Assembly (NCBI GenBank): GCA_038045265.1
Contig: JBBSYL010000015.1
Coordinates: forward strand, 21,780-53,779
Length of the DNA: 32,000 nt
Direction of reading: 5' to 3'
From: Nanobdellota archaeon
GTDB taxonomy: Archaea; Nanobdellota; Nanobdellia; Pacearchaeales; GW2011-AR1
Part shown: positions 3,149-32,000 of the stretch, piece by piece
Layout: every line of letters begins with the position of its first letter
Position numbering within the stretch: position 1 is the stretch's first letter
Position numbers and translations under genes: made by a program
The notes under the pieces: model-generated
Databases searched by the model: none
What the model was told of the DNA's origin: nothing
What the model saw: the letters and a program-made list of their open reading frames with translations, nothing else

Positions 3149-3769
3149 TTACCATCCATCATCTGTTTCTTTAAGCATTTTAGCAATATTTGCCTGAACT
3201 TCAGGAGTTATTCCAAGTCTTTTCTTTTCAAAATCAGAATCATATCCGTGTAAAACATCATAAACTTCTCTAACTATTCTAGTTCCTTCATCTGAACTTC
3301 CGAAATAAGCTATTCTTCCAATAAGTCCACATTTCACAGAATCATTTCTTCCAATAGGCATATTCATGTCAAATTTTCTTTCAAGTTTATGTTCTTTATA
3401 ATCTCTCAATTTAACATTAACCTTTCCATGAATAGTCAATACCCCATTCTCCCCTCCAGAGGAAGCATCAGCCACAAAATCATATCCTACAATTATTGCT
3501 TTATTTGCCTCAGGAAAAGAGGTATTAAGAGGTACTTTAACAGTCCTATCTGATTCAAATCTTCCTCTTGGTTCTTGTCCAGAAAGTCTATACTCTACTT
3601 TTTTCAAGCTTGCATCATCAATCAATCTAAGTTGTAATAACTGTAAATCCGCCCTAAATCTTGAAACATCTATATCATGAACCCTCATAACCTCTTCAAC
3701 AAAACTACTTCTATTGATACTTTTTGTAAAATCAAAATCAAGAGCAGTGGTTATTTGTCCATAATACAT
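3149..3769 (-). CDS. hypothetical protein (206 aa)
   Basis: A long ORF with non-repetitive composition. On the minus strand a TATA-like CTTTAAATA lies about 25 nt upstream of ATG 3769. I recognise no family. Confidence 0.6.
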   Translation of the reverse strand: MYYGQITTALDFDFTKSINRSSFVEEVMRVHDIDVSRFRADLQLLQLRLIDDASLKKVEYRLSGQEPRGRFESDRTVKVPLNTSFPEANKAIIVGYDFVADASSGGENGVLTIHGKVNVKLRDYKEHKLERKFDMNMPIGRNDSVKCGLIGRIAYFGSSDEGTRIVREVYDVLHGYDSDFEKKRLGITPEVQANIAKMLKETDDGW

Positions 3770-3815
3770 ATTTAATCAGATTAAAAATACTATTTAAAGA
3801 TTTATGTGATAAAAG

Positions 3816-3823
3816 TTTAAATA
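3816..3823 (+). promoter_or_regulatory. BRE/TATA element (AAAAGTTTAAATAC) for the chorismate mutase gene
   Basis: There are 20 nt between TTTAAATA and ATG 3844. The identical 14-mer AAAAGTTTAAATAC recurs at 27405-27418. Confidence 0.55.
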
Positions 3824-3843
3824 CGCACTATTTATACAATTGC

Positions 3844-4155
3844 ATGGAAATTGAAGAAGTAAGAAAGAAAATAAACGAAATAGACTATAAAATAATAGAA
3901 CTTATTGTGCAAAGATTCAAGCTTGTAAAAGAAGTTGCACTTCACAAGTTCACAAATAACCTTCCCTTAAAAGATCCAAGTAGAGAAAAAGCTCTTATAG
4001 AAGACAGAAATGCAAAGTTTGAAAAACTAGGATTTAAAGATAGCGGTTTTGTTAGCTCTCTCTACTCAACAATAATAAAAAAATCAATAAAATTACAGAA
4101 GAATTATATGAAAAAGCATAAGAAAGATAGAGAAGAAAAACTAACTGGGGTTTAA
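3844..4155 (+). CDS. chorismate mutase (AroQ / type II, all-helical)
   Basis: It shows the AroQ pattern EEVRKKINEIDYKIIELIVQRFKLVKEVALHK...PLKDPSREKALIED. The 103-aa size is typical of monofunctional AroQ. Confidence 0.75.
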   Translation: MEIEEVRKKINEIDYKIIELIVQRFKLVKEVALHKFTNNLPLKDPSREKALIEDRNAKFEKLGFKDSGFVSSLYSTIIKKSIKLQKNYMKKHKKDREEKLTGV

Positions 4156-24463: not shown

Positions 24464-26092
24464 ATGAACGATTCAACGCCTATTTATGAATTAGCCAATA
24501 GAGGGGGAGTTGATTTCGAATCTGTTCTAGAATTAAGTATTGCTACGCAGGAAGCAGGAGTATCAGATTTGCAATCTTTAAGATCATCTGCTTCAGAATT
24601 AAAACAAAAACTTCTTTTATCTTCTGGTGCCTCAAAGTTGTTCGATGAAATAGTCGCAGGAAAATATTCTGCAACAGAGACTCGCGCCTCTTTAAAAAAA
24701 GAAACCTCTCCAGAAGTAAATAATCAAGAGCAAACAAAAACAATCGAAGATAAACTCCAAGCTAAAAACTCTCCAACAACTTCCACAGCTCAATCTCAGC
24801 CACCTGAGCAAGAGCCAAAGAAATCTGAACTCTCTGTGACAGAGAAGAAACTTGCGCTTGGATGGAAAAAGATGAATTTAGCAAAATTACCTGCAGTCGC
24901 AGTTTTAGGACATATAGAAAATATGGGCAAAAAAATGCAAATTCATGCTTATATTGTCAGAAACAATGTTAAAACTCTGCAAGATTTAGAAAACACGCCT
25001 TATCATAATTTCACCTCATTCAGATTAGAAAGAGATAGATGTGTAAGTACTTTTGCGGTGGCTTCAATGAGAGAAGCAATAGCAGATAATTTTTGGGTAG
25101 ATCCTAAAAAAGAAAATATGTTAAGAAATCAAGCAGACGCAATTCCAAATAATTCATATCCAGTTTCAGACTTAATAGCCCATATTGCAGAAGAAAGTGA
25201 AGGAGTCGCAGCATATGTTAGAAGTTATGTAGGAGAAAGAAAAATAAGGACAGTAGATGGGTTGTCCTCTTTATCAGATTCTGTTTTACGAGGGGGAGGT
25301 TTTAAAGAAAAATCTCTTAGTCTTGTAAGAGATATTATCGCAGAAAGATATCCCTCTCTGATAAATAGAGAATCTCAAAGCGTTCCAGATGAGAGATCAG
25401 AAAAAAAAGAGGATACTTCTCCAAAAGTTGTAAGAGGTTATTCATGCGAGGTAGATGGATGTAGATTAACTGTAAATGGTCAAAGAATAATTGCACAGCC
25501 AAATTATAGAATAGGGGTTTTAACTGTAACAGAAATGACAAAAAAATTAGAGAGAATGTTTAGCCTCCATTCTCAAGGAAAGGATCCAGAAGAAATAAAA
25601 AGAGATCCTAGTATAGGATTTAGCGTAGAAACTATAAATGATTATTTAGCTAAAGCAAGAGTTATTCCAGAACAGAAAATTCCTGTTCAAGTCTTAAAAG
25701 AGCCACTAAGAAATTATCAATTTAGGAGAGATGGATGTAGATTAACTGTAAATGGTCAAGAGATAAAATTAGTGCGTGGGAAAGGAGGTAATAAAGATAC
25801 TTTGGCTAAAAATCTAGAGAGAATTTTTCATATGCATTCCATTGAAGGAAAGAATCCTGATGAAATTTACAGAGACCCAGGAGTTAAGCTAGTTTTACCA
25901 ACAATTATGAAATATTTAAGAATAGCCAAAGTTATACCGCAAGCAGTTACAGATAAAGAGAAGCTACTCCCAAGTGAAGTTTATTTAGAATCAAGAGTAG
26001 TGTATGATGCGGATTTGAATGCAACTGTCCATCCTGCACCTCCAAGAAACCCTTTAGAATTTCAGCCTACATTGGAAAATTTATTAAAATAA
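24464..26092 (+). CDS. hypothetical protein with a low-complexity linker, HhH-like segments and a tandem about-92-aa duplicated C-terminal domain (HTH-like)
   Basis: The two repeat units start at YSCEVDGCRLTVNGQ and YQFRRDGCRLTVNGQ. Each ends in G-K-(D/N)-P-(E/D)-EI-x-RDP...YL..A(K/R)VIP. I recognise no family. Confidence 0.7.
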   Translation: MNDSTPIYELANRGGVDFESVLELSIATQEAGVSDLQSLRSSASELKQKLLLSSGASKLFDEIVAGKYSATETRASLKKETSPEVNNQEQTKTIEDKLQAKNSPTTSTAQSQPPEQEPKKSELSVTEKKLALGWKKMNLAKLPAVAVLGHIENMGKKMQIHAYIVRNNVKTLQDLENTPYHNFTSFRLERDRCVSTFAVASMREAIADNFWVDPKKENMLRNQADAIPNNSYPVSDLIAHIAEESEGVAAYVRSYVGERKIRTVDGLSSLSDSVLRGGGFKEKSLSLVRDIIAERYPSLINRESQSVPDERSEKKEDTSPKVVRGYSCEVDGCRLTVNGQRIIAQPNYRIGVLTVTEMTKKLERMFSLHSQGKDPEEIKRDPSIGFSVETINDYLAKARVIPEQKIPVQVLKEPLRNYQFRRDGCRLTVNGQEIKLVRGKGGNKDTLAKNLERIFHMHSIEGKNPDEIYRDPGVKLVLPTIMKYLRIAKVIPQAVTDKEKLLPSEVYLESRVVYDADLNATVHPAPPRNPLEFQPTLENLLK

Positions 26093-26093
26093 A

Positions 26094-27389
26094 ATGCAAA
26101 AATCAAGATTTAATATTTTAAACTATATTCCAGAAGATGGAGCAGAGTTTGTATTAAATAAAGCAGAAGAAATAAAAAGATATGCAAGGGGCGTAGAGGA
26201 CAGATTAAAATTAGTTTCAAAATTATTTTTAAGAAGAAGGTTTGGGTGTGCGGAGGCAATTGTTCAAGGAGAGTTTCCCAGACTGCCTAAAAGAGTATTT
26301 CATGGACAGCAAAGATTCTGCGAAGAAGAAGCCGTCAAGGATTTTCTTCTTCTTTCTGCATTGGGAATTCCAAGACTTTATGCATCATGCGAAAATTTCA
26401 AAAATCTTGGTTTAGGTCATGCATTAGTTTTGGTTCCTTCAAAAAGCCATTTCATCATGCCATATTATGGAGATTTAATGAATGTTAAAATGGAAGGAGA
26501 TAGATTATATGATTTGGATACTAGAACATGTGTAGCATCTGGCTTAGATATAAAACCTGATGAACAAGTTTTGGCATTATTAAGACAAAACAAAAGAAAA
26601 GTTTTAGGCAGAGCCACAAGCCCTCAATTGCTTGATAGAGTAAGAACAAATAGGGGAAACATAGAAGCAAGAATGTTTTACTCTCCAGATGAACTGAGAA
26701 TTGAATATATAGTAACTGATGTAACCACAAATTCTCCTTTTTATTATGACCAAAGATTAAAAAAATCGGGCAATACTTTCTTAGCTTTAGAAGAATGCGG
26801 ACTTGCACTAAACAGGGCAGGATTTTCGTGTAACAAGATACCTTTGTTTACTTCTCCTCCATTAAAGAGCTTAACAAAACAAGCAACTCAATCAATTAAA
26901 GATTCAGAGACAAGAAACTTAACTCTTGGAGTTATGTATAACATAATGCTTGAAAGTTGTGGAGATGACTTTTTATCCACCGCAAGTGAGCGCTGGGAAC
27001 TTGTTGCAGATTTAGAGAGTAAATCAAAAAGCCAAGATAAAGCAACAGCAGATGAAGCAAGAGCAACACTAGATTATAATACTCTGCTTAGAAGAGTAAA
27101 CGGACCTGTTGCTTCAGCAACTTATCTTGACTCTCTAATAGTAAGAATGGAAACTTTCAGAAGAGATGGCTTAAATCTTGGACAGGCATTCAGAAGAATT
27201 TCCGCACTTCCATTTCCAGCAGGATTGTTTTCAGAATTTTGTAGAATAAATATTAAGAGTTTAAAAGATAATTATTTTAACAATTATCTTAACGCAGAAT
27301 TAAAGCTTACAGAGGAATTCACTTCTTCAAATCCAAGAAAACTGCCTAAATTAATGTTAGATTTAGTCTTAATTTGTTACTCAAGTTAA
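26094..27389 (+). CDS. hypothetical protein with a possible N-terminal transglutaminase-like (papain-fold) Cys-His-Asp core
   Basis: It starts 1 nt after the upstream stop. GQQRFC(76)EEEAVKDFLLLSALGIPRLYAS ... GH(109)ALVLV ... YYGD(127) matches the spacing of the TGase-core pattern G.C..FA......LRALGIPAR ... HAW.EV ... D. This is a motif-level match only. Confidence 0.65.
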   Translation: MQKSRFNILNYIPEDGAEFVLNKAEEIKRYARGVEDRLKLVSKLFLRRRFGCAEAIVQGEFPRLPKRVFHGQQRFCEEEAVKDFLLLSALGIPRLYASCENFKNLGLGHALVLVPSKSHFIMPYYGDLMNVKMEGDRLYDLDTRTCVASGLDIKPDEQVLALLRQNKRKVLGRATSPQLLDRVRTNRGNIEARMFYSPDELRIEYIVTDVTTNSPFYYDQRLKKSGNTFLALEECGLALNRAGFSCNKIPLFTSPPLKSLTKQATQSIKDSETRNLTLGVMYNIMLESCGDDFLSTASERWELVADLESKSKSQDKATADEARATLDYNTLLRRVNGPVASATYLDSLIVRMETFRRDGLNLGQAFRRISALPFPAGLFSEFCRINIKSLKDNYFNNYLNAELKLTEEFTSSNPRKLPKLMLDLVLICYSS

Positions 27390-27409
27390 ACACAATTTCG
27401 CGAAAAAAG

Positions 27410-27417
27410 TTTAAATA
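27410..27417 (+). promoter_or_regulatory. BRE/TATA element (AAAAGTTTAAATAC) for the GHKL ATPase gene
   Basis: There are 21 nt between TTTAAATA and ATG 27439. The 14-mer is the same as at 3811-3824. Confidence 0.55.
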
Positions 27418-27438
27418 CATCCCATGCTAAAAATTTAA

Positions 27439-29409
27439 ATGTCCCAGCAACCTTTAGAAGTTTTGGTAGTAAATAGAACAGTCGGAGAGGATCTCCTAGA
27501 AACAGTAAGCAATAATGTTTGTGACGGTCCATTGCATGCAGTAGCAGAACTTGTTGCTAATTCTTGGGATGCCGATGCACATTTAGTTGAGATAGAAATA
27601 GACAAGCCGGGAAATAGAATTTTGATAAAAGATGATGGTTCAGGAATGGACAGAGCAGGGATTGATGCATTTTACAGAACTGGAGATAGCCCAAAGAAAG
27701 TTGAAAAAACTTCCCCCAGTGGAAGACCAAGATTGGGCAGATATGGAATTGCCGCCTTTGCAACAAAAGCTCTAGCTAACGTCTGTGAATTAACTACAAT
27801 AAGAGATAGAAGTAGATTCCATTGCAGAGAAGAATTTGGAGAATCACAATTAATAGGAAAGTCATTAGAAGTTTCCGTTTTCAAAGCTCCAGAAAGAGAA
27901 CACGGAACGGAGATTTTACTTACTAATTTAAAAGTTGCAGATTATGCAGAATTTAATCAATTTGAATTAAGAAGTTATCTTGCTTCCCATTTTCATCAGA
28001 TAAGAGCAGAAAATAATTTTGTTGTTATTGTAAACGGAGAGTCGGTAAAATCAAGAGTAATAGAAGGAGCAGTCAGATTTTCAGTTGATACAGCGGGCGA
28101 ACACACTGGACCAATTAAAGGCACGATATATTTGACAGGAAGAAGAACAAAGGATGCAGGAGTGCATATTAGGGTAGATGGTAGAGAAATAGGAGACTCA
28201 AAGAGGCTTATTAATTTAGAATATATAAAGCGTTCAACCGCAGGAAGAGTCATTGTAGAAGTTCAAGCAGACGATATGCGCCAGTACATTACCTCAAGAA
28301 GAGACGGGTTTATTCCTGGAAAAGCGCTGGACGAATTAAAAAGATTAATCAGAAAAGAATTAATAGAAGTCAATAGGTATGCTGTCCAAGGTGCGACAGC
28401 GACTAAATCAAGGCACTTGAGAGGAAAGAGAGATAAGGTTCTTACAAATGTAAAAGCTCACTTTAAGTCTAGGCAAGTCCCAGAAATTGCAGAAGTGTCT
28501 TTAATATTTGAATCAGAAAATAAACAAGAAGTTCCATCGCATCTTCCAGCACTTTATGATGAAAAGTCAAGAAGAGTAGTATTAAATCCAAATTATGCAA
28601 CCTTAGATACTGATAAAGCTCAAAATGAACTTTCTTTAAAGCTTGGAGTAGTTGATGCTGTTGCAACCGCCATTGCAGAATTTAGAACAAGGGGTTCAGG
28701 TTTAGGGCAATTAGAAAGATTCCTAAAACATAAAGCTTTGCTATTAGCACAAGTCGCACCAAGACATAAAAAAGAAGAAAAAGGAAGCGAAATATTTTCA
28801 AATGCACATTACGAACTTAAGACTCTTGCCAGTTTATCAGGCCACTCAATCCCCCATCTTAGACACGCTGTAAGCGGAGGATTGCTTTCAGTTACCCAAA
28901 GCGGAGAAGTTATGGGCATAGCCTTTAAGGAAATGATCAGAAGGGTTGGTGGTTTAATCACTCTTTATCAATTAATAGAAGAAAACGTACCCATGAAAGA
29001 TCAAGCAGAGCAATTAAGACACGGGCAAAGATTCACAAAAGTATTATCTTTAATGGGTGATGAAACAGTTACTCCATTCTTTCATAATCTTACTACTAAT
29101 GGTAGTCCCTGCTATTTTGCAGAACCATCATGCGCTAAAGAATTAGCAGATTTAATGGCAGGCACAGACCTTAGAAAAATAAGAGATTCAGAATTGCCAG
29201 GTATAATGAAGGCCCATAAAGAGCAGTATTTTAGTCTTGGAGATATGGCAGAAAGACTTAAGATGCTTAAAGGAGACGTTGCGGGCGTATTAAATTATGT
29301 AGAATCAAAAGGCCTAAAAATTGATCAGAGAGAAAGAGGAAGAGGAATTCAGATAAATTACGCAGATTTCATATCTGCTTTACAGCATAAAAGAAAAGCA
29401 GAGTTTTAA
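27439..29409 (+). CDS. GHKL-superfamily ATPase (HATPase_c_3 / MORC-Hsp90-like Bergerat fold) with a long C-terminal extension
   Basis: The N box is ELVANSWDA (27547-27573). The G1 box is IKDDGSGM (27631-27648). The G2-like box is GRYGIAAFA. A GTEILL motif follows. The C-terminal about 400 aa are helical or wHTH-like and I cannot assign them. Confidence 0.8.
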   Translation: MSQQPLEVLVVNRTVGEDLLETVSNNVCDGPLHAVAELVANSWDADAHLVEIEIDKPGNRILIKDDGSGMDRAGIDAFYRTGDSPKKVEKTSPSGRPRLGRYGIAAFATKALANVCELTTIRDRSRFHCREEFGESQLIGKSLEVSVFKAPEREHGTEILLTNLKVADYAEFNQFELRSYLASHFHQIRAENNFVVIVNGESVKSRVIEGAVRFSVDTAGEHTGPIKGTIYLTGRRTKDAGVHIRVDGREIGDSKRLINLEYIKRSTAGRVIVEVQADDMRQYITSRRDGFIPGKALDELKRLIRKELIEVNRYAVQGATATKSRHLRGKRDKVLTNVKAHFKSRQVPEIAEVSLIFESENKQEVPSHLPALYDEKSRRVVLNPNYATLDTDKAQNELSLKLGVVDAVATAIAEFRTRGSGLGQLERFLKHKALLLAQVAPRHKKEEKGSEIFSNAHYELKTLASLSGHSIPHLRHAVSGGLLSVTQSGEVMGIAFKEMIRRVGGLITLYQLIEENVPMKDQAEQLRHGQRFTKVLSLMGDETVTPFFHNLTTNGSPCYFAEPSCAKELADLMAGTDLRKIRDSELPGIMKAHKEQYFSLGDMAERLKMLKGDVAGVLNYVESKGLKIDQRERGRGIQINYADFISALQHKRKAEF

Positions 29410-30046: not shown

Positions 30047-30250
30047 ATGGCTGAATACAATTTAATAATAGAAAAAGACGAAGAAGGATGGTTTGTAGGT
30101 AGCATACCTGAATTGCCGGGTTGTTATACGCAAGCAAAAACAATACCTCAATTATTGGAAAGAATAAAGGAAGCAATAGAAGTTTATTTAGAAGGAGAGA
30201 AAAATATTCCCTTGATAAAGTTCATAGGTATTAGAAAAATAGAGGCGTAA
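30047..30250 (+). CDS. hicB: HicB-family antitoxin (UPF0150-type, N-terminal domain only)
   Basis: YNLIIEKDEEGWFVGSIPELPGCYTQAKTIPQLLERIKEAIEVYLEG is the canonical HicB/UPF0150 fold signature. Its stop overlaps the hicA start (TAATG). Confidence 0.85.
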   Translation: MAEYNLIIEKDEEGWFVGSIPELPGCYTQAKTIPQLLERIKEAIEVYLEGEKNIPLIKFIGIRKIEA

Positions 30251-30474
30251 TGGCGAAATTACCAAAAGTTTCTGGTAAAGAATTGTGTAGCATTTTAGAA
30301 AAGATTGGTTTTATAAAAATCTACGGAAAGGGAAGTCATGTAAAATTTAAGCATCCAGATGGAAGAAGGACAGTAGTACCTATACATGGAAATGAAGACA
30401 TTGGTCCAGGACTTCTTCTGGCTATATTAAGGCAAATTGGATTATCAAGAGAAGAATTTGAGAAGTTGTTATGA
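30250..30474 (+). CDS. hicA: HicA-family mRNA interferase toxin
   Basis: VSGKELCSILEKIGFIKIYGKGSHVKFKHPDGRRTVVPIHGNEDIGPGLLLAILRQIGLS is the canonical HicA (YcfA) sequence, including the catalytic His. Confidence 0.9.
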   Translation: MAKLPKVSGKELCSILEKIGFIKIYGKGSHVKFKHPDGRRTVVPIHGNEDIGPGLLLAILRQIGLSREEFEKLL

Positions 30475-30711
30475 TTTAAATCAAATAGAAAGATACGTAA
30501 ATGTCCATAAATTAGGATTTAAGTCTGTAAAATGGGACAGAATATCTCAAATGTCTTTCTTTAGAAACATGTTAGATTATTATGGAGAGAGCATACCTAT
30601 TGATTTCTACAACAAAAACAAAGATGACTTTGAAAGGATAATTGATATTCTGATAAAACTGACAAAGTAGTGATATTATATTAACTATACAATAGTAACA
30701 CAATAGAAAGA

Positions 30712-30719
30712 TTTATAAA
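30712..30719 (+). promoter_or_regulatory. TATA box (GAAAGATTTATAAAC context) for the DGR target gene
   Basis: There are 21 nt between the box and ATG 30741. Confidence 0.5.
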
Positions 30720-30740
30720 CGCACATAAATAATAAAGACT

Positions 30741-31577
30741 ATGCAAAATAAAGTAGAAAACCAAAGAATTGAAGGAACAAGTCTGTATATTTTTAACAAG
30801 GACGTTAAAACTGGAGATTTTACCTATTCAAGACCTATTAGTATGGATGAAGCAAAAGCAGTTGCAAGTAAAGTAGATGGATTAAACGTTGCAGATAATG
30901 GTTCATTGATTTATATGAATACATTAAGGGGAATAAGAGCAAACAGAGAATTAATGGCTCAAACTCAAGGAAATGTTTGGCTTCCAACAATTCAAGAAGG
31001 ATTTGTATTACATGATGCAAAACTTTTGCCCTCAAACGAATTAATGGATTTTGGAATAGCTCTTTACAACGTAGAAAATCCAGATAAGCAAATTGCAGGA
31101 AAATTAATAGAATGTGCAAGACAAAAAGGTTATGCAGTTCCAATATTGGCTTCATTTAAATCATTAGATTTAGAGCAAGGTGGAGAAAGATACGGAGTTA
31201 CACCTGTTTTTGTTTCTAAAGAAGGATTAATAACAGGACAAGATGCAGTAAAACTTTTAGAGAGATTTAATTTTAGAGGAAATTCAGGCGTTTGCAGGTT
31301 GGGCCGCAGCTACGGGGTTTGGGTTGCGGACTGGGACGTTAGCCTTGACGCGGACGGTGTCTGTCGGGTGGGGCGAGTTTCTGCCGTAGGCACCGCGAAA
31401 AATTTAATTGAGCTTGCTGAAAACGAAGTAAGAACAAAATATGATTCTAACAATGCAGTCACAAGAAAAGATATTGTTTCTTTGGAAAGCAAGATTGCAA
31501 CATTACAAAGCCAATTAACACAATCAGAAGCTGACAGACAAAAAAGTGTTGAATCTATAAAACAATTTCTTGCATAA
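30741..31577 (+). CDS. DGR target (variable) protein, 278 aa, with no signal peptide and the VR about 65 aa before the C-terminus
   Basis: The ORF contains the VR (residues about 183-211, ...GVCRLGRSYGVWVADWDVSLDADGVCRVG...). A predicted helical/coiled tail follows (NLIELAENEVRTKY...LQSQLTQSEADRQKSVESIKQFLA). Confidence 0.8.
   Translation: MQNKVENQRIEGTSLYIFNKDVKTGDFTYSRPISMDEAKAVASKVDGLNVADNGSLIYMNTLRGIRANRELMAQTQGNVWLPTIQEGFVLHDAKLLPSNELMDFGIALYNVENPDKQIAGKLIECARQKGYAVPILASFKSLDLEQGGERYGVTPVFVSKEGLITGQDAVKLLERFNFRGNSGVCRLGRSYGVWVADWDVSLDADGVCRVGRVSAVGTAKNLIELAENEVRTKYDSNNAVTRKDIVSLESKIATLQSQLTQSEADRQKSVESIKQFLA
31288..31371 (+). repeat. DGR variable region (VR)
   Basis: VR codons: GTT TGC AGG TTG GGC CGC AGC TAC GGG GTT TGG GTT GCG GAC TGG GAC GTT AGC CTT --- GAC GCG GAC GGT GTC TGT CGG GTG G. 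The patch is strikingly GC-rich in an AT-rich genome. Weaker similarity to the TR flank continues to about 31390 (CTGCCGTAGG versus CTGCTAGG). Confidence 0.85.
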
Positions 31578-31772
31578 TTTTAAAAGCAATTACTTTCTTA
31601 TAAGAGTCCTAGCCACATAAACAATGGCTGGGCCACACGTCAATTAATAGTGCTTTCTCTTACGAGAAAGCCATAAAATACAGTTGCAAAATATAGTAAG
31701 CTATGAAATACCTTTATGGATTGAGCTGAATTATTAAGCTACAGTGGAACTTTGATTAATTGGCTAATTTTA

Positions 31773-31859
31773 GCGTTTGCAGGTTGAACCGCAACAACGG
31801 CAATTGGAATGCGAACTGGAACGATAACCTTGATAACGCGAACGATAACTGTCGAATGG
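31773..31859 (+). repeat. DGR template region (TR)
   Basis: TR codons in the VR frame: GTT TGC AGG TTG AAC CGC AAC AAC GGC AAT TGG AAT GCG AAC TGG AAC GAT AAC CTT GAT AAC GCG AAC GAT AAC TGT CGA ATG G. That is 9 AAC and 2 AAT codons. The TR is non-coding and lies between the target gene and the RT. Confidence 0.85.
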
Positions 31860-31881
31860 CTCAGCCTGCTAGGAATTTACT

Positions 31882-32000
31882 ATGAAATCATACAACCATC
31901 TTTACAATCATATAATTTCATTTGAAAACTTAATTCTTGCTTGGAAAAAAGCAAGAAAGAATAAAACAAAAAAGAATTATGTAATTGAGTTTGAAAAATA
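31882..32000 (+). CDS. DGR-type reverse transcriptase, N-terminal 39 codons only (partial, runs off the window)
   Basis: MKSYNHLYNHIISFENLILAWKKARKNKTKKNYVIEFEK matches the conserved N-terminus of DGR and group-II-like RTs (L..I.S.ENL..A...A.KGK......EF). The catalytic motifs lie outside the window. Confidence 0.75.
   Translation, partial: MKSYNHLYNHIISFENLILAWKKARKNKTKKNYVIEFEK

Follow-up and report, generated by a model that had tools for sequence, protein, structure and literature searches.

No targeted mutators stronger than diversity-generating retroelements (DGRs) are known, and there is so far little to explain how they are kept in check. The closest described systems are those of Nanoarchaeota and other DPANN archaea (Paul et al. 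2015, PMC4372165; the CPR/DPANN set of Wu et al. 2018, PMC5758913). In these, a target gene, a template repeat (TR) and a reverse transcriptase (RT) gene follow one another in that order, several DGRs occur per genome, the targets are orphans, and the variable repeat (VR) lies close to, not at, the C-terminus. The published DPANN accounts that we consulted make no mention of repeats or frameshifts in the RT. One variable protein of a Nanoarchaeota DGR, AvpA, has a C-type lectin fold, with a globular domain of ~210 aa, a VR at 181–203 and then a helical extension (Handa et al. 2016, PMC5006420). Among the RNA motifs RT-1 to RT-19, only RT-10 was given a function, being tied to the DGR of Bordetella phage BPP-1 (Weinberg et al. 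2017, PMC5737381).

The window, by which we mean the whole 32,000-nt stretch of DNA that was analysed, ends inside a cassette that shares the gene order, the orphan target, the VR placement and the occurrence of several DGRs per genome with these DPANN systems (Table 1). We found that the element is a genuine DGR and ordinary in its VR/TR design. In addition, the RT gene is split at an (AG)n tract, and we consider it likely that in this chromosomal Nanoarchaeota cassette the tract acts as a slippage-prone gate on the RT, which would make hypermutation phase-variable.

Table 1. Features of the DGR cassette (window positions unless L001 is named)
Feature	Position	Strand	Description
Repeated segment upstream of target	30641..30727	+	87 bp, also upstream of second target gene
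TATA-like box TTTATAAA	30712..30719	+	~26 nt upstream of target ATG; read from sequence
DGR target gene	30741..31577	+	278 aa, orphan family; NCBI MEK6889031.1, Nanoarchaeota
VR (variable repeat)	31288..31371	+	84 nt, codons 183-211 of 278 in target ORF
IMH-like region (putative)	31361..31397	+	invariant VR 3' end and G+C-rich continuation encoding CRVGRVSAVGTA
TATA-like box TTTTAAAA	31578..31585	+	~27 nt upstream of RT-16 5' end
RT-16 RNA motif (Rfam RF03019)	31608..31772	+	structured non-coding RNA, 3' end exactly at TR start
TR (template repeat)	31773..31859	+	87 nt, 28 A, 11 AAY codons in VR frame
RT1, first 39 codons	31882..32000	+	gene runs past window end to L001 12268 (= window 33008)
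(AG)10 frameshift tract in RT1	L001 11719-11738	+	beyond window end

The cassette and its variable repeat

Differences between the VR and the TR were concentrated on adenines of the TR. The original prediction had paired the two repeats and counted 20 substitutions, 19 of them on a TR adenine. We recovered the same pair by ungapped comparison at offset 485 and by gapped local alignment, with 19 or 20 mismatches depending on gap placement, 18 or 19 of which were at TR adenines (13–14 A>G and 5 A>T). Tabulated by TR base, the mismatches gathered on A and were not spread over the four bases (hypergeometric P = 2.8e-11 for at least 18 of 19 mismatches on 26 A among 84 aligned positions). The sole mismatch at another base is a C>G (TR 31801 / VR 31316), and the alignment contains one 3-nt indel, an extra ATA/TAA in the TR at about 31833–31836. 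Position 31287/31772 is a further A>G mismatch, so the TR possibly starts one base earlier than tabulated. The neighbouring second cassette showed the same pattern, with all 22 VR/TR mismatches at a TR adenine (P = 5e-14). Two further parts of the prediction also held, namely the Asn codons of the TR, which translates in the VR frame as SVCRLNRNNGNWNANWNDNLDNANDNCRM, and the G+C-rich patch formed by the VR (65% G+C versus 33% in the remainder of the target gene). The TR is intergenic and is overlapped only by a 41-codon chance ORF.

Homology between VR and TR stops within the putative IMH-like region, the residues of which are almost invariant across the target family; positions 31369–31397 are 69% G+C. 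The DNA 3' of this VR folded no better than shuffled sequences (z = 0.07), and the DNA after the VR of the second cassette folded better than shuffles (z = -2.2). No Avd gene was found, and the interval between target and RT held no ORF of at least 40 aa except the one overlapping the TR; Avd is not universal among DGRs. The 3-nt deletion and one non-adenine change of the VR relative to the TR, the lack of a significant hairpin after the first VR, and the lack of an Avd gene count against our reading of the cassette.

The cassette is ordered as target gene with VR, RT-16 RNA, TR and RT. The RT-16 covariance model matched over positions 1–158 of 158 and scored 92.5 bits (gathering score 50). 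Like the motif as published (Rfam RF03019; PMC5737381), the match is full-length, exceeds the gathering score and lies beside an RT gene; what differs here is that RT-16 adjoins the 5' end of a TR in DGR cassettes. The motif was also present in the second cassette and in L084, a second allele of the locus described below. In three cassettes it directly precedes a verified TR, and in 19 of 20 related DPANN loci it lies upstream of the RT. From this we conclude that RT-16 belongs to a DGR, which gives this orphan Rfam motif a role as the RNA element that adjoins the TR on its 5' side in this clade of DGRs. The TATA-like box upstream of RT-16 is presumably the promoter of an RT-16/TR/RT transcript, and the second cassette has a comparable A/T box at the same distance.

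The target is a member of a small orphan family of variable proteins that has no confident fold match. Its family comprises 22 homologue clusters at 90% identity. Scans of the target and all 21 family members against Pfam, NCBIfam and PADLOC gave no match, nor did a profile search of the target against PDB sequences. Foldseek searches with the full model (PDB and BFVD) and with a helix-less model (PDB) returned nothing with E < 0.2, and among the weak, non-significant matches C-type lectin-like domains recurred (langerin, CLEC4D, Ly49, NKR-P1A and EBV gp42). These results are consistent with the earlier suggestion that the target family may be undescribed. In the AF2 model of the target, which like the other AF2 model is confident (pLDDT 91.6 and 89.7), the N-terminal part forms a globular alpha/beta domain, the VR occupies beta-strands at 184–217, and a helix spans 219–277 at the C-terminus.

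The two target genes showed no homology to each other by hhalign and are preceded by a shared sequence. The repeated segment upstream of the target is 97.7% identical to L001 13494–13579, compared with 83.7% for the remainder of the duplicated unit, and is likely to contain the promoter region as well as a recombination junction. The second target is preceded by the same TATA-like box at equal spacing. Given the ~26 nt between this box and the target ATG, the mRNA is predicted to be leaderless.

Natural variation followed the pattern set by the TR. In the target family alignment, the hypervariable sites coincided exactly with the TR-Asn positions. L084, a second allele of the target gene, comes from another well and is represented by one low-coverage contig; its coding flanks are identical to those of the window and its VR is different. 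The two VRs differ at 14 positions (12 A sites, one C and one T), and the L084 VR has 20 of 21 mismatches with the TR at A. Because the flanks are identical and the VR is changed at adenine sites, homing appears to have been recent. L084 also carries a 198-nt insertion, for which we found no Rfam match and no copy among the other loci.

Repeat tracts in the reverse transcriptase genes

The cassette lies on a 108-kb contig from Hainich groundwater, annotated as Nanoarchaeota (DPANN) and covered ~19x. Genes for archaeal EF-1alpha, EF-2 and CDC48 surround it, and the two DGR cassettes stand in tandem, each beside an EF-2 sequence. Together with the annotation, these neighbours agree with the archaeal, DPANN-like context that had been proposed from the DNA.

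RT1, the RT gene of this cassette, is of DGR type and is not intact as assembled, because a frameshift of 2 nt in (AG)10 splits it. The original prediction had placed an ORF with a DGR-RT-type N-terminus 9 nt after the TR homology. The assignment to the DGR type stood, with LGNLTSQ in motif 4 and YVDD; the spacing did not, as the ATG at 31882 lies 22 nt after 31859. Likewise, the RT motifs expected in the ORF from 31882 were only partly there. This ORF ends after 199 codons inside the tract, with a stop codon directly after it, and motifs 4–7, including the DGR-typical motif 4 and YVDD, are encoded by the following ORF, which lies in the -1 frame. Removing one AG restores an intact RT of 374 aa containing GMPLGNLTSQFFANIY, and RT1 carries no lesion besides this single extra repeat unit. 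The fused protein matched Pfam RVT_1 and the structure of Brt from Bordetella phage BPP-1 (8ub7, E = 5.6e-41), its best solved relative. We collected 7275 RT homologues, the best of which (Nanoarchaeota, Pacearchaeota and Woesearchaeota) are 60–76% identical and intact. The dN/dS ratios of the two halves of the RT were 0.085 and 0.14–0.25, from which we infer long purifying selection on both sides of the tract.

The other RT genes of this genome were out of frame as well. RT2, in the second cassette, is frameshifted at (AG)10 and has a second frameshift in an A-run. We note that the (AG)10 shared by RT1 and RT2 is not independent evidence and we rejected counting it as two cases, because the 240 nt around the tract are 99–100% identical between the genes, which indicates gene conversion. 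In other assemblies the proteins imply an (AG)11 tract, the lengths being read from protein tails (P0124, P0126, P0127 and P0284). The third RT, RT3, has (AG)9 or (AG)10 depending on the assembly, both out of frame. No in-frame allele of RT1, RT2 or RT3 was present among 5.8 billion clusters, and all six observed tract states were out of frame.

In related loci, tract length separated intact from split RTs. L165 and L166 show 0 mismatches over 1568 nt and are distinguished by the tract alone, the one with (AG)9 having an intact RT and the one with (AG)8 a split RT. In the pair L167 and L168, which have 1 mismatch over 3504 nt, the RT is intact with G12 and split with G11, poly-G runs of at least 11 being open to length errors in short-read assemblies. 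L103 and L135 show a change in the tract that is compensated by the loss of 1 nt, so that the frame is kept.

These repeats were largely confined to particular places. In many related DPANN DGRs, (AG)n or poly-G occurs at two fixed sites of the RT, one in the motif 3–4 loop and the other in the stretch that follows YVDD. Within 900 kb, 14 of 15 dinucleotide tracts of at least 6 units lay in this RT loop, with none in the 32-kb window, and G/C runs of at least 8 numbered 20 inside RTs and 3 outside. All five inter-motif frameshifts were at a tract, compared with none in 251 tract-free segments (Fisher P = 8e-5). GAG makes up 20% of Glu codons here and GGG 10% of Gly codons, so codon usage does not account for pure tracts. 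Close relatives included ~97 split RT clusters, a number that we do not convert into a frequency because the RT loci were chosen by tools favouring intact RTs and the fragment search was length-biased. A frequency from the N-terminal search was rejected for the same kind of reason, since its candidate list favours short proteins (P0001 is absent although its N-terminus is that of P0282).

A repeat as a possible gate on hypermutation

Judging by characterised DGRs, the RT-16/TR/RT transcript would be copied by the RT into cDNA, with wrong bases incorporated opposite the adenines of the TR, and this cDNA would replace the VR. In this way ~15 positions on the surface of an orphan binding protein would be recoded, for which we calculate more than 10^15 variants. 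The (AG)n tract would then be a slippage-prone simple-sequence repeat controlling RT production, with mutagenic homing off in most cells and restored where one repeat unit is gained or lost. Extended to DPANN DGRs generally, we offer only tentatively the idea that RT repeats at the two fixed positions make the hypermutation machinery phase-variable, such that a stochastic minority of cells with an in-frame RT may diversify the VR and most cells may keep a frozen one. The six out-of-frame tract states of RT1, RT2 and RT3 count against this reading, in that they fit decay of the DGR as well as a switch that is mostly off.

Decay is the alternative to which we give most weight, although we regard it as unlikely. 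It holds that the DGR worked until recently, that the RTs are now pseudogenes, and that the tracts are neutral mutational hot spots, the loop being one that tolerates change and is struck first by frameshifts. The three RTs of the genome are indeed out of frame in every assembly seen, RT2 has its second lesion, at least five contigs or samples share one consensus VR, and the in-frame version is absent from the clusters searched. However, the dN/dS values on both sides of the tract reflect long purifying selection, RT1 is otherwise without lesion, and the second VR allele with its identical flanks points to recent homing. Neutral hot spots also fit poorly with the repeated appearance of tracts at these two sites in many lineages, with their purity despite contrary codon usage, or with the frame kept in L103 and L135. 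Recoding at the RNA level has a poor chance in our estimation. Here, polymerase slippage on the tract or ribosomal frameshifting would yield a low level of full-length RT, as in transposases of IS elements, which obtain a low-level product via recoding; this would be compatible with slippage in DNA. Because (AG)10 and (AG)11 each miss the frame by a single unit, slippage by plus or minus one unit would rescue both; the RTs of the genome are all conserved despite being out of frame, and the (AG)10 allele has its stop codon immediately after the tract. Close relatives nevertheless have tracts of similar length in frame, which argues that the shift is not a conserved requirement and led us to reject a conserved programmed frameshift. 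The canonical slippery site X XXY YYZ is absent, and to our knowledge dinucleotide-repeat slippage during elongation is poorly documented.

Less favourable still, and in our judgement very improbable, is an error of assembly or sequencing that makes an intact RT look frameshifted. Repeats are error-prone and tract length does vary among assemblies of one population, but the contig has its ~19x coverage, (AG)8–11 is short for Illumina error, both paralogues and the third RT are out of frame in independent assemblies with none in frame, and the same pattern appears in dozens of independent data sets (ENA, JGI, NCBI and Logan). That the element is no DGR, and its repeats an ordinary duplication or gene-conversion tract, has a negligible chance. 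Nothing beyond the 3-nt indel and the one non-adenine mismatch favours it, and it is refuted by the adenine specificity of both cassettes, the adjacent DGR-clade RT, the presence of RT-16 and the L084 population allele varying at A sites. We retain the phase-variable gate as the likely reading of the locus.

If this reading is true, an RT frame made or broken by a repeat would be a simple, heritable and reversible control of a DGR. It would amount to a bet-hedging switch atop a targeted mutator and stand among very few contingency loci described in archaea. It would also account for many DGRs that look inactive in metagenomes, and apparently fragmentary DPANN RT genes could be read as off states rather than junk. 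A repeat-based gate on a DGR RT is probably unreported; among the papers that we consulted, none connected DGR RTs with repeats, phase variation or frameshifts.

Comparison with known systems

The RT belongs to the same clade as those of the described Nanoarchaeota and DPANN DGRs (PMC4372165, PMC5758913) and is 63% identical to the RT of SCGC AAA011-D5. Unlike those systems, the present locus has a target family unmatched to described ones, tandem cassettes each by an EF-2 sequence, and an RT out of frame at (AG)n.

Compared with the BPP-1 DGR (mtd-VR / avd / TR / brt), the cassette shows the same adenine-specific flow from an AAY-rich TR to the VR, and its RT shares [I/L]GxxxSQ and YxDD with Brt. 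In contrast to BPP-1, there is no avd, a 165-nt RT-16 lies 5' of the TR where BPP-1 has an Sp/RT-10 element 3' of it, the RT starts 22 nt after the TR, and the host is archaeal and the element chromosomal, not phage-borne. The loop between motifs 3 and 4, which holds the repeat, is ~29 aa here and ~8 in Brt.

The target resembles AvpA (PMC5006420) in its layout, with the VR at 183–211 followed by the helix at 219–277, and in a last invariant beta-strand encoded by the 3' end of the VR. It differs from AvpA in having none of the motifs GXXVVVYAH, HPXXXPFXG and RFXGV, and no sequence match to any PDB chain.

The tract itself resembles the simple-sequence-repeat contingency loci behind phase variation in Neisseria, Haemophilus, Campylobacter and Helicobacter, in which, as here, a pure repeat lies in coding sequence, differences of one unit toggle the frame, and repeats are scarce elsewhere. 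There is also a conceptual likeness to the coding homopolymers of mismatch-repair genes that toggle mutation rate (PMC11250277). Unlike in the contingency loci, the gene that would be switched here, in an archaeon and as read from sequence, is the enzyme of targeted hypermutation.

The DGR cassette and its setting

The window comes from ENA contig Hain_H51_01um_R3_40 (108,056 bp, ~19x coverage), assembled from Hainich groundwater (0.1-um filter). The original prediction claimed an adenine-specific pair of variable repeat (VR) and template repeat (TR), and alignment confirmed it. The repeats align at an offset of 485 with one 3-nt indel, an extra ATA/TAA in the TR near 31833-31836. TR adenines account for 18-19 of the 19-20 mismatches (hypergeometric P = 2.8e-11), and the sole mismatch off adenine is a C>G change (TR 31801, VR 31316). 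The TR translates in the VR frame as SVCRLNRNNGNWNANWNDNLDNANDNCRM, with the predicted 11 Asn codons (AAY), and the VR is indeed a GC-rich patch (65% G+C, compared with 33% in the remainder of the target gene). The only correction needed concerned the start of the reverse transcriptase (RT), which lies 22 nt after the TR (ATG at 31882), not 9 nt. The cassette is a bona fide DPANN diversity-generating retroelement (DGR).

The neighborhood includes genes for archaeal-type EF-1alpha, CDC48, SMC, a Toprim protein and a HicAB pair, with aEF-2 and ribosomal protein S7 downstream. The same proteins in NCBI are labelled 'MAG: Nanoarchaeota archaeon' (locus tags AABW80_), and the setting is a DPANN chromosome, not a virus. 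The HicB-like antitoxin and HicA toxin genes lie directly upstream of the DGR (window 30047-30474), and a PemK/RHH pair lies downstream (L001 19177-19741). Three large genes at window 24464-29409 (542, 431, and 656 aa) are without family assignment, apart from the last, which has a GHKL ATPase domain and weakly matches REase_II of PADLOC; this region may be a defence island adjoining the DGR. The sole tRNA of the window is a tRNA-Met (CAT) at 868-945.

Features of the DGR locus and related cassettes. L001 is the locus that covers the window from 20741 onward and a further 8.8 kb past the window end; its coordinates are window coordinates minus 20740.
Feature	Position	Details
Target 1 ORF	window 30741-31577	278 aa; contains VR
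VR	window 31288-31371	inside target ORF
RT-16 RNA (Rfam RF03019)	window 31608-31772	165 nt, between target stop codon and TR; 92.5 bits vs gathering score 50, whole model
TR	window 31773-31859	intergenic
aEF-2 3' fragment	L001 12284-13375	minus strand; 363 codons; directly after RT1
Cassette 2	L001 13494-15815 (window 34234-36555, beyond window end)	target 2, RT-16, TR2, RT2 in order
Complete aEF-2	L001 15809-17998	minus strand; after cassette 2
Third DGR	L169 1371-3654, contig Hain_H51_01um_R3_211	same genome and sample; 287-aa target, RT3

The 3' end of the RT-16 match abuts exactly the first TR base. RT-16 also occurs 5' of TR2 and in a second allele of the locus (L084), and in 19 of 20 related DPANN loci it precedes the RT at a distance of 105-130 nt. 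Weinberg et al. 2017 (PMC5737381) described RT-1 to RT-19 without function, except for RT-10, which was tied to the BPP-1 DGR. In the DGR clade of RT1, the RT of this cassette, the position directly 5' of the TR is occupied by RT-16. A/T-rich TATA-like boxes precede both target ATGs and both RT-16 5' ends by ~26-27 nt, from which we infer that the target mRNA is leaderless and that RT-16, TR, and RT share a transcript of their own. One Nanoarchaeota locus (L010) has two RT-16 copies 3 kb apart (671-888 and 3671-3896), so tandem cassettes may be common.

The target family had been suspected to be undescribed, and consistent with this, no member has a Pfam, NCBIfam, or PADLOC match. At 90% identity the family forms 22 clusters, and at 50% identity it has 132 representatives; almost all members measure 250-290 aa, and those with a named source are Nanoarchaeota. 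Its alignment shows a constant scaffold, SGVxRLxRxxxGxWxAxWxxxLDxxxxxCRVGRVSA, with variation exactly at the TR-Asn positions. The AlphaFold2 model is confident (pLDDT 91.6, pTM 0.82): it shows an alpha/beta globular domain, places the VR at strands 184-217, and ends in a C-terminal helix of 59 residues. Foldseek searches with the helix in or out returned nothing significant from PDB or BFVD; C-type lectin-like domains recur among the weak matches (langerin, CLEC4D, Ly49A/C, NKR-P1A, and EBV gp42).

A second VR allele and further cassettes

Well H43 yielded the same target gene in another version (protein P0142 on contig L084; ERZ1292635, coverage ~1), with coding flanks identical to those of the window and a different VR. 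This VR is 87 nt long, lacks the 3-nt deletion of the window, and has 20 of its 21 mismatches with the TR at A. The two VRs differ at 14 positions, of which 12 are A sites, one is a C, and one is a T, and the C>G change and the 3-nt deletion are private to the window allele; TR/VR indels in multiples of 3 are already known from the literature. With two independent homing products in one aquifer, one of them read from a single low-coverage contig, the element is shown to have been at work recently. L084 also carries a 198-nt insertion (937-1134) with strong hairpins and stops in all frames inside RT codon 18; this insertion matched nothing in Rfam and recurs in none of the other loci. Relative to the window, the L084 spacer and TR also show ~20 differences, at a contig coverage of ~1.

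In cassette 2, all 22 VR2/TR2 mismatches fall at TR adenines (P = 5e-14), and the 244-aa target is unrelated to target 1 (hhalign). Target 1 and the target of the third DGR have related VR scaffolds. Repeated units at L001 10891-13467 and 14430-16997 share 83.7% identity, compared with 97.7% for the 87 bp upstream of both targets (window 30641-30727, including the TATA-like box), a segment that may be a recombination site. The EF-2 fragment is still an open frame, and its dN/dS of 0.063 relative to full aEF-2 (dS 1.1) means that it diverged while functional. This suggests that cassette 1 and the EF-2 piece were imported from a related lineage, probably by integration at the 87-bp segment, rather than duplicated in place.

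Repeat tracts in RT genes

The ORF downstream of the TR was predicted to be a DGR RT. The gene is an RT, but its frame is broken: the ORF ends after 199 codons in MQRERERE-stop, and the remainder (GMPLGNLTSQFFANIYL ... YVDD ... FVGFRNF ...) continues in the -1 frame. The break point is a pure (AG)10 tract (L001 11719-11738), and deleting one AG yields an uninterrupted 374-aa protein. This fused RT1 matches Pfam RVT_1, and NCBIfam has no DGR-specific model. Its top solved-structure match is 8ub7_A (E = 5.6e-41), a chain we verified to be Brt of Bordetella phage BPP-1, with group II intron and retron RTs ranking lower. An ORF survey found no Avd ORF in the cassette. The best 120 of 7275 homologues in the protein database are intact, with 58-76% identity, and belong to Nanoarchaeota, Pacearchaeota, or "archaeon" where named.

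RT2 shares the (AG)10 tract and the frame error, and also bears a 1-nt frameshift in an A-run. RT3 is split at (AG)9 in ENA, and the NCBI MAG implies (AG)10. In other assemblies of the same population, N-terminal RT pieces end ...QRERERESNFCIG and C-terminal pieces begin MRTLECRERERERVTFALGE, both of which require (AG)11, for RT1 and RT2 alike. All six tract states known for the three RTs are out of frame, and the protein collection searched contains no in-frame version of any of them. RT1 and RT2 are 99-100% identical over the 240 nt that separate the tract from YVDD, compared with 82-92% elsewhere. This points to gene conversion, in which case their common tract length is not independent evidence.

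We surveyed ~900 kb in 161 DPANN loci for such tracts. Dinucleotide tracts of at least 6 units number 15, of which 14 map to the RT loop that separates motif 3 (ADIKHYF) from motif 4; the 32-kb window has none. Poly-G runs (G6-G13) occur in the same loop (context GGGG-ER) and at a second site after YVDD (..SW-GGG..), and G/C runs of at least 8 number 20 inside RTs versus 3 outside. Site 1 carries a tract in 36 of 154 RT copies; the frame is lost there in four of the 36 (L001 twice, L079, and L083) and in none of the 118 tract-free copies. At site 2, one of 11 tract-bearing copies is out of frame (L078, SCGC AAA011-D5, G10), compared with 0 of 133 tract-free copies (both sites combined, Fisher P = 8e-5). 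The site-2 hot spot lies ~40 codons past YVDD, with G9-G10 runs in L019, L026, L048, L078, L123, L131, and L154.

Two allele pairs are decisive for tract instability. L165 and L166 have no mismatch over 1568 nt, yet (AG)9 gives an intact 370-aa RT and (AG)8 a split one (198 + 183 aa); L167 and L168 have one mismatch over 3504 nt, with the RT intact at G12 and split at G11. The latter are one DGR in ENA and JGI assemblies, with a target in the target-1 family and an identical VR. L103, with (AG)9, and L135, with (AG)11, are both in frame via a compensating 1-nt deletion. Searching with the N-terminal half gave ~97 clusters of 190-270-aa RT fragments that end shortly past an (RE)n or GGG tract, and in 38 clusters an out-of-frame read-through of motif 4 is recognizable (..KECLLAI or ..RNASWQ..); the list is biased to short proteins, so these are numbers, not frequencies.

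Proposed phase variation, the rival of decay, and known DGRs

This DGR was recently active, and a single repeat unit puts its RT out of frame, at a tract that is length-polymorphic in natural populations and site-specific across the clade. We infer that the tract gates RT production by phase variation. Slipped-strand mispairing would turn the RT reading frame on or off, leaving the VR stable in the majority of cells and diversifying in a minority, and slippage during transcription may add to or replace slippage at the DNA level.

The principal alternative is simple decay, with the tract as a mutational hot spot, which would fit three RTs never seen in frame and the second lesion in RT2. Decay alone accords poorly with RT1 having just one lesion, with the recent VR allele, and with the purity and conserved position of the tract. 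Codon preference does not explain this purity, since only 20% of the Glu codons in the window's genome are GAG and 10% of its Gly codons are GGG. Selection also speaks against decay alone: dN/dS between RT1 and RT2 is 0.085 in the N-terminal half and 0.25 and 0.14 in C-terminal parts, so both halves were under purifying selection. That the frameshift is an assembly artefact is unlikely, given the 19x coverage, the ease of sequencing short AG tracts, and the recurrence of the pattern across ENA, JGI, NCBI, and Logan data.

The cassette is a member of a known archaeal kind of DGR. RT1 relatives in GTDB genomes come from Woesearchaeota, Pacearchaeota, and Nanoarchaeota and include SCGC AAA011-D5, which resembles the single-cell genomes of the first archaeal DGR descriptions. 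We found nothing in the accessible literature linking DGR RT genes to simple-sequence repeats, frameshifts, or phase variation; the novelty would lie in the repeat tract in the RT gene. The target has no sequence match to AvpA, a solved Nanoarchaeota variable protein, and lacks its sequence motifs, but the layout is parallel: in AvpA a helical extension follows the VR, which spans residues 181-203 of 256.
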